DNA from: a virus
Lineage: Duplodnaviria; Heunggongvirae; Uroviricota; Caudoviricetes
IMG/VR virus record: IMGVR_UViG_2651869724_000014
Strand: one strand, 5' to 3'
DNA length: 46,907 bases
The notes under the pieces are model-generated. The model searched no databases. It was given only the letters and a program-made list of their open reading frames with translations, and was not told the DNA's origin. The translations under genes and the position numbers were made by a program. Positions 5,045 through 39,003 of this stretch are shown piece after piece (the first letter of the stretch is position 1; each line of letters opens with the position of its first letter).

Positions 5045-5200
5045 TTACTCCTCAGGTTCGTAAGCTGTGAAGACAGCGACCTCCGTCTGGCCGGTTCGGA
5101 TTCGTACCTCGCAGAGGTCTTTCCTCGTTACCAGTGCCGTCACAATGACGGTTAAACAGATGACGATCAGGGCGATTAACATCGCCTTTTGCTGCTTCAT
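5045..5200 (-). CDS. hokD: Hok/Gef family type I toxin HokD (RelF)
   Basis: 51-aa translation MKQQKAMLIALIVICLTVIVTALVTRKDLCEVRIRTGQTEVAVFTAYEPEE matches HokD as recalled; ATG at 5198-5200. Confidence 0.8.
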   Translation of the reverse strand: MKQQKAMLIALIVICLTVIVTALVTRKDLCEVRIRTGQTEVAVFTAYEPEE

Positions 5201-5994
5201 AGCCTGCTTCTCCTTGCCTTTCGGCACGTAAGAGGCTAACCTAGATTTGCCGTTCATAGATTGAGCCTCAGATTAATGTTAAGCGTCTTGCAGGACGCGT
5301 AATGTTAACTGGGGCTTTTCTCTATCTGCCTTTGGTGTTCATGCCTGAGACAGATAGCCTCAAGCACCCGCAGCCATTCTACTTAACTCCCGTTACCTCG
5401 CCAATATGAAATCAGTCAGAAAGGCGATCCATAAGAACAACAGCAAGGCAATAAATTGCCATTAAGGCAGCAATAGCCAGCGCACATTTGAGAACCAGCA
5501 CCACAACCTCCTGTATTGGACGTACATCAGTCCTGATAAATATGAGGCTGTCTCGTCAGTGATTCAATACAACTATTGGGTATAGTTTCTGTGATTTTGT
5601 TCTGTAGAAATGGAACACAATAACCAGTCACCACCAGCACTTCTTTAAATACGCCAAGTCCGACGCAAGCTAACCTTCTAGCCCACTTTGAGCGAGAAGC
5701 AGACATTTACTTAACTGGATAGCAAGAGACTTCATATATCATGGTTGATCCCGGAGTTTTCAATAATGGAAAGACATTGCCCGTATGATCGGGCCGTAAC
5801 CACATTAGAAGCAGGTGCCCTTTGTGAATTTTGATTGTGTCAACCTATCTGTTTTGAATTTTTTATAAAAAATATTCGCAAATTTGTGAATTATGAGAGA
5901 CAAACGAGCATGGACAACCAATGTTACTTTCATACACAATGAAGCAACATGATAAAAGTACACTGACTTTAGCAAGTAAATTTAGGAGATTGCG

Positions 5995-11726: not shown

Positions 11727-11784
11727 TTTCTGGTGACGTTTGGCGGTATCAGTTTTACTCCGTGACTGCTCTGCCGCCCTTTTT
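11727..11784 (+). ncRNA. dicF: DicF small RNA (ftsZ-targeting sRNA of Qin-type prophages)
   Basis: tttctggtgacgtttggcggtatcagttttactccgtgactgctctgccgcccttttt matches DicF as recalled, with terminal hairpin and T-run, between ydfC and dicB. Confidence 0.7.
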
Positions 11785-17298: not shown

Positions 17299-17374
17299 TC
17301 CTCTGTAGTTCAGTCGGTAGAACGGCGGACTGTTAATCCGTATGTCACTGGTTCGAGTCCAGTCAGAGGAGCCA
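17299..17374 (+). tRNA. asnT: tRNA-Asn (anticodon GTT)
   Basis: TCCTCTGTAGTTCAGTCGGTAGAACGGCGGACTGTTAATCCG...GGTTCGAGTCCAGTCAGAGGAGCCA, 76 nt. Confidence 0.85.
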
Positions 17375-17375
17375 A
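17352..17375. repeat. Island attL: direct repeat formed by tRNA-Asn 3' end
   Basis: gttcgagtccagtcagaggagccaa recurs at 45796-45820. Confidence 0.6.
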
Positions 17376-28560: not shown

Positions 28561-28834
28561 ACGTGAAACCTACACCTTTAATCCAGTTTGCGCCGCTTAA
28601 CCCGGCGTATTATTTTACAACCATACATATATTTCGTATTAATTAATAAGAGGGGCATTTTACATTGGCTTATTTTCTTAAAGACAATGCCCACCTATAC
28701 ACTGCTACGCAGTGTGTGGGGTCTACCGACGGTTGCCTGCCGCAGGCTAAAAGCAAAACCAAGGTCAACGTCAACCCCGAAGTTTTTCTGGCGAAAAACT
28801 AACAGCAGCATTTTTATTTGAGGTTATATTTTTA

Positions 28835-30304
28835 ATGGCGATTTTCCATCTGGATTTTAAAATTGTGAAACGAAGCGAGGGCATGACTTCCGTTGCGAAA
28901 GCTGCCTACCATGCCCGTACACGTATTACAGATGATCGCATTGGCGAAACATTTGATTTCAGCCACAGAACAGATCTTCATGGTCATATTATATTAGCGC
29001 CCGTTTCCGCACCTGCTCATATTATTGAAAGCTCCTCAGCACTCTGGAATGAAGTTGAAAGAGTGGAACGCCAGAACAACGGTCAAACAGCCCGTTATTT
29101 TGATGTCGCTATTCCCGTAGAACTCAACAATGATGACAAGAAAAAATTGGTTGCCGAATACTGCCAGAAGAACTTTGTTGATAAAGGAATGATTGCTGAT
29201 ATCGCATTCCATGACTTAGACAGTAAGAACCCACACGCTCACGTCATGTTAACCCTGAAAACCATCGGGCCCGAAGGCTTCGGTAAAAAAGACAGAACTT
29301 GGAATGATAAGAAGATGGTTGTTCAGTGGCGTGAGTCGTGGGCCACGATGTCAAACAGCTACCTTGAAGCCGCAGGCAGTGAAGAACGTATCGATCACCG
29401 TTCTCTCAGAACTCAATGTGCTGATGCCCTTGCTCAGGCAGAAGAAGCATTCAGTGCTGAAGAGAAAGCATTCTGGCTTGCCAAAGCAACGGAAACAAAC
29501 CGCCCGGCAATGCAGCGTGTTCATCGTGCTAAATGGAATGATACCGAGTCTCAGGAACAACGAGCTGCTGAACAAGCTCAACGCGATCATCAAATTGAGG
29601 AAGCAAAGAAGGTCTACGCCACATTCAGTGAGCTACCACTGGAAATCGTTGTTGATGTTCGCTCTTACTCTGTTTACCAGCTTCCTGAACCGGAAGAGAT
29701 CGTTCTCCCTGACTACCCGGCAACAACAAAGCAGCAACCGATTCATGCAGAGTCAGAACCATACAGAAGACCAGCCGTAAAATCTTACCATGCCCCCAAT
29801 AAGGTCAGTAAAGTTGGTGCTGCAGCTAAGAAATCCCCTGTTCTGGTTGCACCTGAACCAAATAAATCCACTAAACTGAAAAACCCTTCTTCTCAAAACA
29901 CCAGAGCGATGAAGCGTGCTCCTGTGAGGAGTAGGAAACAGACCAAGCCCCGCCAGAATGGTTTGTTTAAACGTTTCACGCTACTGATAGTAGGATATAT
30001 AAGAGAGAAATTTATATGGGCCAGAATGAAACCCGATACCACTGATGCTGACCATGATAAGCGTATCGCAGAGAACTATGTCTATGATGAAGTGCTGGGT
30101 GTCAATGTTCCACGCTCAGAGTTTGAAAAACGTACCAAATTTAACGATAGTAACTATAAATTAACACCTAATGAGATCAAGCGTTTCCCAAGCCGTCCTA
30201 AGCGAGTTCAATTAGAGTCAGAGAGCGGTATGGATGTCCTCCCTAAAAATAATCAATTTAACTCGTCAAAAATAAACTTCGTCAAACCAAATTTTAGATC
30301 ATAA
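28835..30304 (+). CDS. mobA: MobA/MobL-family relaxase
   Basis: MAIFHLDFKIVKRS...AKAAYHAR (catalytic Tyr context) and NPHAHVMLTLK (His-rich motif) parallel RSF1010 MobA. Confidence 0.7.
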   Translation: MAIFHLDFKIVKRSEGMTSVAKAAYHARTRITDDRIGETFDFSHRTDLHGHIILAPVSAPAHIIESSSALWNEVERVERQNNGQTARYFDVAIPVELNNDDKKKLVAEYCQKNFVDKGMIADIAFHDLDSKNPHAHVMLTLKTIGPEGFGKKDRTWNDKKMVVQWRESWATMSNSYLEAAGSEERIDHRSLRTQCADALAQAEEAFSAEEKAFWLAKATETNRPAMQRVHRAKWNDTESQEQRAAEQAQRDHQIEEAKKVYATFSELPLEIVVDVRSYSVYQLPEPEEIVLPDYPATTKQQPIHAESEPYRRPAVKSYHAPNKVSKVGAAAKKSPVLVAPEPNKSTKLKNPSSQNTRAMKRAPVRSRKQTKPRQNGLFKRFTLLIVGYIREKFIWARMKPDTTDADHDKRIAENYVYDEVLGVNVPRSEFEKRTKFNDSNYKLTPNEIKRFPSRPKRVQLESESGMDVLPKNNQFNSSKINFVKPNFRS

Positions 30305-36597: not shown

Positions 36598-36989
36598 GCA
36601 ACTAATAATAATATCAAAAATATTTATTATATTTTATAGGTGTTTTATAACATCTGTGATTTTATAGTTTCTTCACTCATCTGTGTGAGTTCTGAAACCA
36701 GACGAATATAAATATTTTTCAACCTGTCTTTATCACAACGACGTACAGACTCTGATAACAGATAATGACTATAATTATTGACACAAATGTTGTTGCCGTT
36801 TTCAATAGTTAATTTCAATCCAAGTTCTGTATCTTCTACTTTTTTATAATACAGATCATAAATGGTGTTTTATCATGTGGATGGAAGAGTGTGATCATTT
36901 TGATATTGTTCATTATATTTTTCTTTTATTATTTTATTACTACTTAATACTCTATCGTAAGTGTAAAAATCAAATATATCTGTGTTTTC

Positions 36990-37930
36990 CTCATGCTTTT
37001 ACTTATTATTTTTAAACTACTTTTTGAAAAAATCTTTATCTCTGTGCTGACGCACGGCTACGCCCTGACACTGATATTTTTATTTTATTCATCTCCTGTC
37101 TTTTAAATAAAAAGAAAAGTACTCGATCATTGTTTGATCTCTTTTCCTCATGATGCTGAATTTAGATCCTATGTTTAAACATAGTTTTTCCCTTTAGACA
37201 TATAGCATTTGCTCTTAAACGTATAGGAAAACTATATCTTTGATAGCAGCACTTCGTGATTGTTGCGAACAATCACTCTGCTGAACAGGGCTTGTTCCTG
37301 TTAATGATGGATTTTTCAATTAATGATTTTTTCCATATAAATTACTGCCTGTAATCAATTACAAGCGTTTTAAGTATGAAGATAGTTATATGTGTCACCT
37401 TCATGCTTCCAACGTCTTAGCAAGCTTCCTGTGCGGTTTATTAACAGCTTATAGAAAACTATTACTTATATTTATTCTTACCTGATACATTCAATTATTT
37501 TTTTGAAAATACATACATTGTGCTGGCGCACGGCTACGCCCCTGATACTGGTATAAAAATATTTTCCTTGTTCATCTATAATGCATTAATGTTTTATCAG
37601 TGAAAAATAAATAGATCAGTATAAAGATTATTCCCTCCACCGAGTTAGAACTCAGATCTTATGCTTGAATATAACATCTTCCCTCTGACATATAGCATTT
37701 GCTCTTAAACACATAGGAAAACTATATCCTTAGTAGCAGCACTTCGTGATTGTTGCCAACAATCACTTTGCTGGACAGGGCTTGCCCCTGTTAATGATGG
37801 ATTTATCCAAAAAAAGATCGCGTCGAAGACGCATATAAATTAAAAGGAATATTAATTAAGCTCTCACACTTAAAGCAGCGGTTCGTGATTGTTCGAAACA
37901 ATCACTTCGCTGATAGCAGTTATTAAGGAA
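36990..37930. repeat. Tandem duplication of an about 480-bp noncoding unit with conserved imperfect hairpin
   Basis: 37022-37075 parallels 37502-37550; 37190-37320 parallels 37680-37810 (about 90 percent); hairpin core gtgattgttgcgaacaatcac recurs at about 37250, 37740 and 37880. Confidence 0.55.
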
Positions 37931-38060
37931 TACAATGCCCCCTGTAAAACCACTAAAACATAACGCAAAAGTAAAGCTGGACTCTCTTAACTTCTTACTA
38001 ATTATTTAATTATAAGCATAGTCCCGGACCAGTAAAATCGCGGCTTCACAACTTTTTTTC

Positions 38061-38144
38061 CTATGTTCGAACATAGCAAACTCCTATGTTCAAACATAGA
38101 TCCGTCCTATGTTCGAACATAGCAAGATCTATGTTCGAACATAG
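38061..38144. repeat. Four tandem 16-bp palindromes CTATGTTCGAACATAG at 22-23 bp periodicity (iteron/operator array)
   Basis: Copies at 38061-38076, 38084-38099 (one mismatch), 38107-38122, 38129-38144; a related copy at 37169-37184. Confidence 0.6.
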
Positions 38145-38268
38145 TTTTTTTAACATATAACATTGTCATAAGAATATACTTTCTATTTTATTTATAGTTC
38201 TACTATTGACTTTCACTTTTTTGCATAGTATTAAAATAGATATAACAAAAATAATAAGAGGGAATAAT

Positions 38269-39003
38269 ATGAATACACCAGATGCTGATCTATTACACTT
38301 ATTTGAATCATTAACTACCGAGCAAAAGATTGATATCGCAAGACGCTTACTACAAAACAAAGAAATAAAATCAACGACAGTTATTTCTTCTGAGGAAGAT
38401 AAAGCTATTTCGTTTTCACAACCTTATGTATTTGCTTTTACTTCCAACTTTCGTGTGTTCTCTGATCTTGACATATCCAAGAATGAATTCCGTGTATTAA
38501 CCTATATTTTGGAGTATATGGAGTTTGGAAATCTGATCAATCTTTCACAATCATCGCTGTGTAAAGCACTGAATATCGCCTCCGGTAATATGTCTAACAT
38601 TTTTAAAAAACTCAGACAGAAAGGAATACTTGTAGAGCATCATGGTCATCTCTATATCAACTCTAACATTTTCGCAAAAGGGATGAGTCATCAACTGGAT
38701 CAGAAACGTAAAGAACAGTTGAGCAACGCTCGCAATCTTTGCGCAGAAATAGAACAGTATCCAGAAAGTTATTCAGCTATGTCAAAAAGTGAAAGAAGAA
38801 CCCTATCCTTAGAAACTGAGACCAAAGAAATCTATACTGACGCATTTGTTTTCAGTAAGAAGAAAAAGAATAACGCTGTTCCTAATCCCAATAACAGCAT
38901 ACATATTGATAAACCACGAAAAGTATATAAAAGAACAAAGGAAAACGAGGAAGCAAGGAGGAACTCTGTTGACGCAGACTCTCATATGCAGAAAGTATCC
39001 TGA
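38269..39003 (+). CDS. Winged-helix DNA-binding protein, possible Rep-like initiator or repressor acting on the upstream palindrome array
   Basis: FRVLTYILEYMEFGNLINLSQSSLCKALNIASGNMSNIFKKLRQKGIL is wHTH-like; ATG 38269 with AGAGGG RBS. Confidence 0.35.
   Translation: MNTPDADLLHLFESLTTEQKIDIARRLLQNKEIKSTTVISSEEDKAISFSQPYVFAFTSNFRVFSDLDISKNEFRVLTYILEYMEFGNLINLSQSSLCKALNIASGNMSNIFKKLRQKGILVEHHGHLYINSNIFAKGMSHQLDQKRKEQLSNARNLCAEIEQYPESYSAMSKSERRTLSLETETKEIYTDAFVFSKKKKNNAVPNPNNSIHIDKPRKVYKRTKENEEARRNSVDADSHMQKVS

Follow-up and report, generated by a model that had tools for sequence, protein, structure and literature searches.

Organization of the locus

This analysis concerns positions 36600-39003 of a 46,907-nt stretch of DNA (IMG/VR virus record IMGVR_UViG_2651869724_000014, filed under Caudoviricetes; hereafter the window), where an AT-rich spacer leads through a set of repeats and palindromes into a gene for a winged-helix protein, here called rep. 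The locus sits in an integrated island of the EARL group, the Enterobacteriaceae-associated ROD21-like excisable islands, to which ROD21 of Salmonella belongs. An earlier note, made from the letters of the window, had viewed the region either as an iteron-type plasmid origin or as a repressor-operator array. The features immediately upstream of rep, and the gene itself, are as follows.

37876-37912, plus strand: hairpin A, origin-proximal copy, 68 nt upstream of the conserved region; z about -3.6 to -4.0
37981-38018: conserved region (CR), ACTCTCTTAACTTCTTACTAATTATTTAATTATAAGCA, near-invariant in 14 loci from ~10 genera
38059-38146: four iteron-like repeats with a 22-23-bp period, each holding a 16-bp palindrome, CTATGT-N4-ACATAG
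38061-38076, 38084-38099, 38107-38122 and 38129-38144: the four palindrome copies
38183-38262, plus strand: predicted rep promoter/operator region, the promoter being called by reading the sequence
38183-38197: degenerate palindrome CTAT-N7-ATAG
38206-38211: predicted -35 element TTGACT, followed by a 17-nt spacer containing GCATAG
38229-38234: predicted -10 element TATTAA
38256-38262: rep ribosome-binding site, AAGAGGG, a good match
38269-39003, plus strand: rep, an open reading frame of 244 aa, named "replication/maintenance protein RepL" by PGAP

The palindrome CTATGTTCGAACATAG is perfect at 38061, 38107 and 38129, and the copy at 38084, CTATGTTCAAACATAG, carries one mismatch; start-to-start spacings are 23, 23 and 22 bp. 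The copy number and spacing given in the earlier note therefore stand, but not its description of all four palindromes as perfect, and the winged-helix gene that it placed downstream is present, encoding 244 rather than 245 aa. A fifth, solitary copy with two mismatches lies at 37169. Counting matches with at most three mismatches, the window holds five against 0.26 expected, a number reached in 0 of 100 shuffles. The predicted rep promoter is flanked and overlapped by the CTAT-N7-ATAG and GCATAG half-sites, which resemble the repeats.

Relationship of Rep to plasmid initiators

The profile search for Rep_3/RepA suggested in the earlier note gave no Rep_3 match. Instead, Rep marginally passed the Pfam RepL model (PF05732; 21.5 bits versus a cutoff of 20.3, E 1.8e-4, profile positions 22-145 of 164), and its other Pfam matches were to HTH_36 (23.2 bits) and MarR-type helices, in keeping with a winged-helix core. 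Profile searches of NCBIfam and PHROGs assigned no family, and a sequence search of the PDB returned no solved relative. An AlphaFold2 model, for which 17 sequences were used, reached a low pLDDT of 54, too poor for a fold search.

Relatives of Rep in a large protein database come from Enterobacterales only, and include short proteins (~165-200 aa) encoded on contigs of ~2-3 kb. A tblastn search of PLSDB located a Rep relative on 55 small plasmids of 2.3-3.7 kb, eight of which were examined and carry one to three annotated genes each. The characterised members of the pHW126-like family, namely pHW126 from Rahnella and pIGRK and pIGMS31 from Klebsiella (PMC6854812; bioRxiv 10.1101/2022.12.05.519187), were all matched by tblastn, pIGMS31 with 44.7% identity and E 2e-27, pIGRK with E 6e-15 and pHW126 with E 7e-12. 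BLASTP aligned Rep with RepM of pIGMS31 at 45% identity over 114 aa (E 5e-37) and with RepR of pIGRK at 38% over 150 aa (E 2e-22), and in a multiple alignment the motifs FGNLI, SQ and NSNIFAKG are common to Rep and the plasmid proteins. Reps of this family are proven trans-acting initiators, dimers that bind both the origin repeats and inverted repeats at the promoter and repress their own promoters (PMC6854812; bioRxiv 10.1101/2022.12.05.519187). Since the proven initiators score as marginally on Pfam RepL (22.1 and 19.8 bits) as the island protein does, the weak RepL match is a property of the whole family and not a misannotation; the authors of the pIGMS31 work likewise described pHW126-like Reps as distant relatives of RepL. 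Overall, sequence comparison makes the island Rep a close relative of experimentally proven plasmid initiators, and assigns it to the pHW126/RepL-like family, not to Rep_3/RepA.

Correspondence with the plasmid REP module

Replicons of the pHW126 type lack an HUH motif and combine features of rolling-circle and theta replication. Their REP module runs from a single-strand initiation (ssi)-like palindrome through a CR of ~20 bp and four 20-bp repeats with 2-nt spacers to an operator of inverted or direct repeats, the promoter and rep, with the CR and the repeats IT1-4 constituting the minimal origin (PMC6854812; bioRxiv 10.1101/2022.12.05.519187). The rep promoter of pIGMS31, TTGACT-N15-TATAAC, is very strong (PMC6854812; bioRxiv 10.1101/2022.12.05.519187). 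Across the family, every member has a CR, and the strong rep promoter is of the sigma-70 type, with repeat-like operator sites on its flanks. In these plasmids the CR is required in cis for replication but not for repression of rep, and the ssi-like palindrome upstream of it is dispensable for replication, although multimers form when it is lost.

A MAFFT alignment of the island upstream region with those of eight plasmids revealed a colinear series of hairpin, CR, four ~22-bp repeats, TTGACT promoter and rep. Sequence common to island and plasmids comprises the CR (15/17), a CCAGCCC...AAGGCTT spacer and the promoter block CTATTGACT, which aligns with mapped rep promoters of pHW126-like plasmids. 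The first 17 nt of the island CR, ACTCTCTTAACTTCTTA, differ from the pIGMS31 CR, ACTCTCTTACTTTCTTA, at two positions and occupy the equivalent place upstream of the repeats (over a longer stretch, island ACTCTCTTAACTTCTTACTAATT... against pIGMS31 ACTCTCTTACTTTCTTATTG...); the CRs of the other aligned plasmids are rich in TCTTA. The four island repeats fall in phase with IT1-4 of seven pHW126-like plasmids, and the nearest of these plasmids also carry palindromic repeats, such as AGTTATGTAAACTCATAACT, so that dyad symmetry is normal for this branch of the family. The origin-proximal hairpin A takes the position of the plasmid ssi-like palindrome, with a sequence unrelated to the GC-rich plasmid ssi.

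Judged by alignment, then, the region is a complete pHW126-family REP module inside an EARL mobilisable island. Both halves of the original suggestion are supported, the plasmid-type origin by a homology that extends over the protein, the order of the elements and part of the DNA sequence, and the mobilisable element by the island context described below. Because the plasmid Rep dimer serves the origin and also represses its own promoter, origin and operator array are not alternatives here. The repeats are palindromes and not direct iterons of the classical kind. The locus does not resemble an iteron-type theta replicon of the Rep_3/RepA class, given the lack of a Rep_3 match, the palindromic repeats and a lone DnaA-box-like site ~250 bp away. 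Within the searchable literature, no work on pHW126, pIGRK or pIGMS31 was found that links them to ROD21 or EARL islands, and in that scope the pHW126-family connection of the EARL-island rep is new.

Conservation across genera

A scan of one genome per species yielded 15 full-length homologous loci, from Escherichia, Citrobacter, Brenneria, Pectobacterium, Buttiauxella, Dickeya, Mangrovibacter, Phytobacter, Enterobacter and Symbiopectobacterium. Mean pairwise identities in a 14-locus alignment covering ~10 genera were as follows.

CR: 0.97
Four repeats: 0.86-0.95
Promoter block: 0.89
Origin-proximal hairpin A: 0.89
Neighbouring spacers: 0.55-0.69
4-fold synonymous sites of rep: 0.58

The cis elements are as constrained as the non-synonymous codon positions of rep (0.96), whose reading frame is unbroken in 13 of the 14 loci. 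The palindromes lie at about -208, -185, -162 and -140 from the ATG throughout the 15 full-length loci, to within 2 bp in 14 of them and with a 10-bp shift in Buttiauxella; their outer hexamers, CTATGT/ACATAG, hardly vary, and substitutions in the centre are mostly symmetrical (TCGA, TTAA, GCGC). The CTATTGACT and TGCATAGTATT blocks of the promoter region are invariant in the 14 aligned loci. Overall, the cis elements of the module are under strong purifying selection across genera. The CR provides the strongest argument that selection still acts on an origin function and not on autoregulation alone, as it is near-invariant in the islands and, in the plasmids, is needed for replication and not for repression.

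An EARL island and the SEN1990 ortholog

The window is Escherichia coli DNA. Positions 36600-39003 are 99% identical to E. coli O127:H6 E2348/69, and a match is present in 551 of 5426 complete E. coli genomes, chromosomal every time. The E2348/69 counterpart belongs to a 26-kb island adjoining tRNA-Asn, with genes for an integrase, PilV, a type IV pilin, a TraD-like protein, a MobQ relaxase and the PGAP-named "replication/maintenance protein RepL"; this island is IE3, a listed member of the EARL family (PMC6035254). The boundaries of the island in the window are given by two features.

17299-17374: tRNA-Asn
17351-17375 and 45796-45820: 25-bp direct repeat GTTCGAGTCCAGTCAGAGGAGCCAA, corresponding to attL/attR, at the tRNA-Asn 3' end and in its copy

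The direct repeat bounds an island of ~28.4 kb that is 99% identical to IE3 of E2348/69. With its insertion at tRNA-Asn between direct repeats, a tyrosine integrase, MobQ, a TraD-like protein, type IV pilus genes and an H-NS homolog, the host element is an excisable, mobilisable island of the EARL/ROD21 family. The proposal in the earlier note that the island derives from an integrated mobilisable or conjugative element is thus borne out by the EARL membership, the MobQ relaxase and the TraD-like and PilV/pilin genes; the EARL-type nature of the element is already in the literature. Two differences separate the window from E2348/69: mobQ is intact in the window (a 489-aa frame at 28835-30304) and listed in the E2348/69 annotation as a pseudogene interrupted by a stop, and E2348/69 has only three palindromes, one 22-23-bp repeat having been deleted, versus four at 38059-38146 of the window.

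The window Rep is identical to the E2348/69 protein CAS09647.1 and falls in the same 90% protein cluster as proteins of Salmonella Enteritidis and Dublin. Where the Salmonella representative is encoded, the locus shares the CR, the four palindromes and a threefold hairpin A with the window, and DNA identity is ~90%. Shared cluster membership, together with a module kept at this level of identity, identifies rep, on these grounds, as the ortholog of SEN1990 of ROD21. Hoppe-Elsholz et al. modelled SEN1990 as a winged-helix protein and found that its deletion lowered oafB expression and organ colonisation (PMC10655114). Their study compared the gene only with staphylococcal RepL proteins and concluded that it is a regulator unrelated to replication (PMC10655114); its main text makes no mention of a palindrome, inverted repeat, operator or origin of replication (PMC10655114).

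Hairpin cassettes in the AT-rich spacer

The spacer as a whole (36598-38268) is 62-81% A+T. Upstream of the origin-proximal hairpin A it contains a gene remnant and two repeat units.

36598-37020: AT-rich left end of the spacer, 75% A+T
~36645-36913, minus strand: decayed gene remnant, a frameshifted pseudogene in E2348/69
37021-37318, plus strand: repeat unit 1, with GC box, lone palindrome, conserved box and hairpins A and B
37043-37065: GC box of unit 1
37169-37184: lone palindrome of unit 1, CTATGTTTAAACATAG
37197-37237: conserved box of unit 1
37247-37283: hairpin A of unit 1
37284-37302: hairpin B of unit 1; hairpins C and D are decayed
37500-37832, plus strand: repeat unit 2, from GC box to hairpin D
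37519-37541: GC box of unit 2
37659-37674: degenerate lone palindrome of unit 2
37687-37727: conserved box of unit 2
37737-37773: hairpin A of unit 2
37775-37791: hairpin B of unit 2
37798-37809: hairpin C of unit 2
37820-37832: GC-rich hairpin D of unit 2

The earlier note had described ~1.5 kb of noncoding AT-rich DNA with a tandem unit of ~480 bp and a conserved hairpin. The DNA is AT-rich, but only ~1.35 kb is truly non-coding, the left end being occupied by the pseudogene remnant. The duplication is likewise present, but its unit length requires revision: ~300 bp are repeated within a period of 480-490 bp (spacing ~485). A gapped alignment of 37021-37318 with 37500-37808 gives 75% identity, the best block free of gaps spans 160 nt (84% identity, 490-bp spacing), and a 23-nt GC-rich box recurs at 96% identity with a spacing of 476 bp. 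The hairpin occurs in three copies, not two.

In its full form, a unit consists of a GC box or lone iteron-like palindrome, a 38-nt conserved box, ATATAGCATTTGCTCTTAAACGYATAGGAAAACTATAT, and hairpins A, B, C and D. Hairpin A, GTGATTGT(N5)ACAATCAC, has an invariant 8-bp inner stem and an outer CAGCR/YGCTG stem that reads CAGCG/CGCTG in the origin-proximal copy (37876-37912) versus CAGCA/TGCTG in the other copies. Hairpin B has the stem ACAGGG/CCCTGT, and hairpin C carries the sole DnaA-box-like sequence, TTATCCAAA (8/9). The four hairpins of unit 2 together give a z of -4.7. Islands contain two to five copies of hairpin A, in one orientation throughout. Compensatory changes occur in hairpins B and D, and hairpins A and C have stems of invariant sequence; an outer pair of hairpin A covaries, being A-U in 14 copies, G-C in 10, G-U in 3 and another combination in 5. 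Counts of G-T versus A-C mismatches (8 versus 5) are not informative as to the strand of the hairpins.

The same cassette and GC box recur in two EARL-like islands with unrelated Rep alleles, each with a repeat set of its own at this locus. The island of Klebsiella pneumoniae pINF177.2 (122000-142000) encodes a 233-aa Rep with 26% identity and has four GTTTCC..GGAAAC palindromes; that of Yersinia pseudotuberculosis pYPSE1-1 encodes a 168-aa RepL with ~16% identity, and its direct repeats, four to five in number, accompany a CR of the plasmid type. One such island with a divergent Rep lies inside a 310-kb IncFIB/IncHI1B conjugative plasmid. From these comparisons, cassettes of Rep and origin seem to behave as exchangeable modules. 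The hairpin cassettes are almost unchanged in islands with three unrelated sets of Rep and repeats, so the cassette is independent of Rep specificity and must be recognised by something conserved, either a host factor or a protein of the island core.

Proposed function of the module

We propose that the module is a conserved, autorepressed and conditionally active replicon of the mobilisable island, a reading to which we give a probability of about 60%. The homology of the module is seen in the alignments, and its replication activity is proposed by analogy with the plasmid relatives. As with RepR and RepM, Rep dimers would bind the four palindromes together with the promoter-proximal CTAT-N7-ATAG and GCATAG sites, and would already at low occupancy shut off the gene's own TTGACT-N17-TATTAA promoter, predicted to be very strong. 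In the integrated state the module would be silent through this autorepression, and probably also through H-NS-type silencing of AT-rich DNA. On a free circle, formed by excision or after conjugative entry, Rep bound to the repeats would, together with the CR, start replication. The island would in this way live briefly like a plasmid before re-integrating, in the manner of SGI1, the Pseudomonadota integrative mobilisable elements (PIMEs) and several integrative and conjugative elements.

Several observations weigh against such a replicon. Deletion of SEN1990 changed neither the copy number of ROD21 (~1 per chromosome) nor the excised circle (~3%), and the gene was judged by the authors not to be involved in replication or maintenance (PMC10655114). 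A Rep of the island type (>60% identity) occurs on no genuine plasmid in PLSDB, the single match being a 4.8-Mb record, so autonomous replication by this variant has no natural support there. The family has no defined catalytic motif, and confidence in the Rep model is low. The island module lacks the GC-rich plasmid ssi, and the single DnaA-box-like site, at 37803, matches at 8/9 and lies ~250 bp from the repeats. Finally, the role suggested below for the hairpin cassettes draws on position and conservation only, and wobble counts give no strand.

The SEN1990 phenotype would also suit a domesticated regulator, that is, a protein of pHW126-type descent that has lost replication and now serves as an autorepressed transcription factor, with the palindromes and half-sites as operators and host genes such as oafB in Salmonella among its targets. 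An unchanged copy number and excised form combined with lowered oafB expression and organ colonisation (PMC10655114) agree with this view, as do the proven ability of family Reps to repress themselves through inverted repeats at their own promoters and the absence of the island-type Rep from genuine plasmids in PLSDB. It leaves unexplained, however, why the CR, which in plasmids serves the origin and not autoregulation, should be near-invariant (0.97 versus 0.58 at neutral sites), and why four phased repeats should be kept ~70-150 bp upstream of the promoter in 15 loci. Moreover, the deletion was made in an island that is ~97% integrated, where an autorepressed replicon in AT-rich DNA would be silent anyway, so that the negative result is not exclusionary. 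On balance we consider a purely regulatory role somewhat unlikely. Far less probable still is that the palindrome array acts without initiation, either as a centromere-like partition site tethering the excised circle or as an incompatibility or exclusion decoy titrating the Rep of related plasmids. The repeats are indeed incompatibility determinants in pIGRK and pIGMS31, and the PGAP name includes "maintenance"; yet no ParA- or ParB-like gene adjoins rep, the repeat sequences differ among Rep alleles in a way that makes cross-titration of other plasmids unlikely, and CR, repeats and promoter are laid out as in an origin.

For the hairpin cassettes, our best guess, held tentatively and at somewhat less than even odds, is that they are ssi-like signals for single-strand initiation, or complementary-strand priming, on DNA that becomes single-stranded during transfer or rolling-circle replication; it leads because the cassette lies upstream of the CR, as the plasmid ssi does. 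The alternatives are small-RNA genes and a protein-binding palindrome. The former, in which the cassettes would be small-RNA genes or transcribed regulatory RNAs and not DNA-level signals, seems unlikely to us. Such an RNA might run along the plus strand from the conserved box (TTGCTC-N18-TATATY) through hairpins A-D, or might be a minus-strand RNA of ~190 nt, from a promoter at the right edge of the CR to a terminator at 37833-37819. The CR does contain promoter-like hexamers on the minus strand (plus-strand ones can also be read by eye): a site at 38036-38009 (TTTACT-16-TATAAT, 10/12 matches) points away from rep, and ~190 nt downstream, at 37833-37819, comes a terminator-like hairpin with T7 behind it. 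This pair could bound a divergent small transcript containing the complement of hairpin A. The four successive hairpins with their z of -4.7, the compensatory changes in B and D, and the retention of the cassette beside different Rep and repeat sets also speak for RNA. Against it, Rfam yielded no match in the region, whether at gathering thresholds or with E relaxed to 5; beyond Escherichia and Citrobacter the terminator has a poor T-run; hairpins A and C keep one stem sequence instead of covarying, which points to sequence recognition; the 38-nt box is conserved in its entirety and not in the hexamers alone; and the searched supplements of a study of enteropathogenic E. coli by Hfq RIL-seq (RNA interaction) contain no coordinates of the region. 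More speculatively, and in our estimate improbable, the four-hairpin cassettes with the conserved box and GC box could represent a new EARL-specific class of cis element acting on single-stranded island DNA, the whole block being an establishment region. Its priming sites or single-strand promoters would start complementary-strand synthesis and early expression of rep, the DUF4756 gene and the H-NS paralog in a new host.

Neighbouring features of the island

Upstream of mobQ (28686-28750), an inverted repeat, CACTGCTACGCAGTG (28700-28714), is followed by TGTGGGGTCTACCGACGG, and this CACTGCTACGCAGTG/TGTGGGGTCTACCGACGG block is kept near-exactly in the TraD-MobA intergenic region of the Klebsiella pINF177.2 island. 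The inverted repeat is a plausible candidate for the origin of transfer (oriT) of the island. Its resemblance to the GC box CACGGCTACGCCC at 37053 and 37529 is loose. For the GC box itself (GTGCTGACGCAC GGCTACGCCC), a role as another oriT or in mimicking the oriT of a helper plasmid was considered and rejected: blastn placed it only in EARL-like contexts, and the better oriT candidate adjoins mobQ.

The 3' side of rep (39031-40949) holds a 263-aa reading frame that matches no family, a DUF4756 gene (39908-40387) and a full-length H-NS paralog (40545-40949). The same two genes, in this order, are also found 3' of the divergent rep in the pINF177.2 island, DUF4756 coming before H-NS, which suggests a conserved block co-oriented with rep. 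Elsewhere in the island, 18889-20720 matches a HEPN-domain protein and a DUF262 protein annotated in E2348/69, likely a defence pair, and 23177-25297 matches an annotated MvdC/MvdD-family ATP-grasp protein with two adjoining genes. Outside the island, Rfam matches to AgvB and STnc100, sok antitoxin RNA and DicF (654-906, 5195-5369, 11728-11779) show that DNA of a prophage or cryptic prophage lies left of the tRNA-Ser/tRNA-Asn locus.

Comparison with known systems

ROD21, IE3, ICEKp258.2 and other EARL islands occur widely in Salmonella, Klebsiella, pathogenic E. coli and plant pathogens, and virulence is influenced by their excision. A complete pHW126-type origin under selection changes the reading of SEN1990, which is now treated as a regulator unrelated to replication. 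If the proposed function is correct, the pHW126 replicon type would extend from tiny cryptic plasmids to integrative elements.

The closest parallels are the modules of the pHW126-like plasmids. These share with the island a homologous winged-helix Rep (45% identity with RepM and 38% with RepR over the core), the order of parts, a related CR, palindromic repeats in the nearest plasmids and repeat-like sites at a TTGACT promoter. In contrast to them, the island module is chromosomal, within a 28-kb integrative island; its Rep bears a lysine-rich C-terminal extension of ~85 aa; and where the plasmids have the GC-rich ssi it has an unrelated cassette of four hairpins, in one to five copies. The staphylococcal RepL of pSN2 type (PF05732) is similar in that the island Rep, like the pHW126-family initiators, marginally passes its Pfam model, but identity to staphylococcal RepL is below 19% for SEN1990 (PMC10655114).

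In its proposed way of life, the island module resembles the RepA/oriV of SGI1 and the repA-oriV of PIMEs, where a plasmid-type initiator and a repeat-bearing origin likewise reside in an excisable, helper-mobilised island, and where replication is silent until a helper induces excision (PMC7433901, PMC7826253, bioRxiv 10.64898/2026.01.12.698999). Membership of the island among the PIMEs was considered and rejected, as these are characterised by RepA, AlpA and IncP helpers. The initiators of SGI1 and PIMEs belong to an unrelated family, Rep_3/RepA with direct iterons and a DnaA box, and their helpers are IncC or IncP plasmids. Should the pHW126-type module of EARL islands prove to be a conditional replicon, it would provide a further case for the emerging rule that mobilisable islands carry silent replicons.

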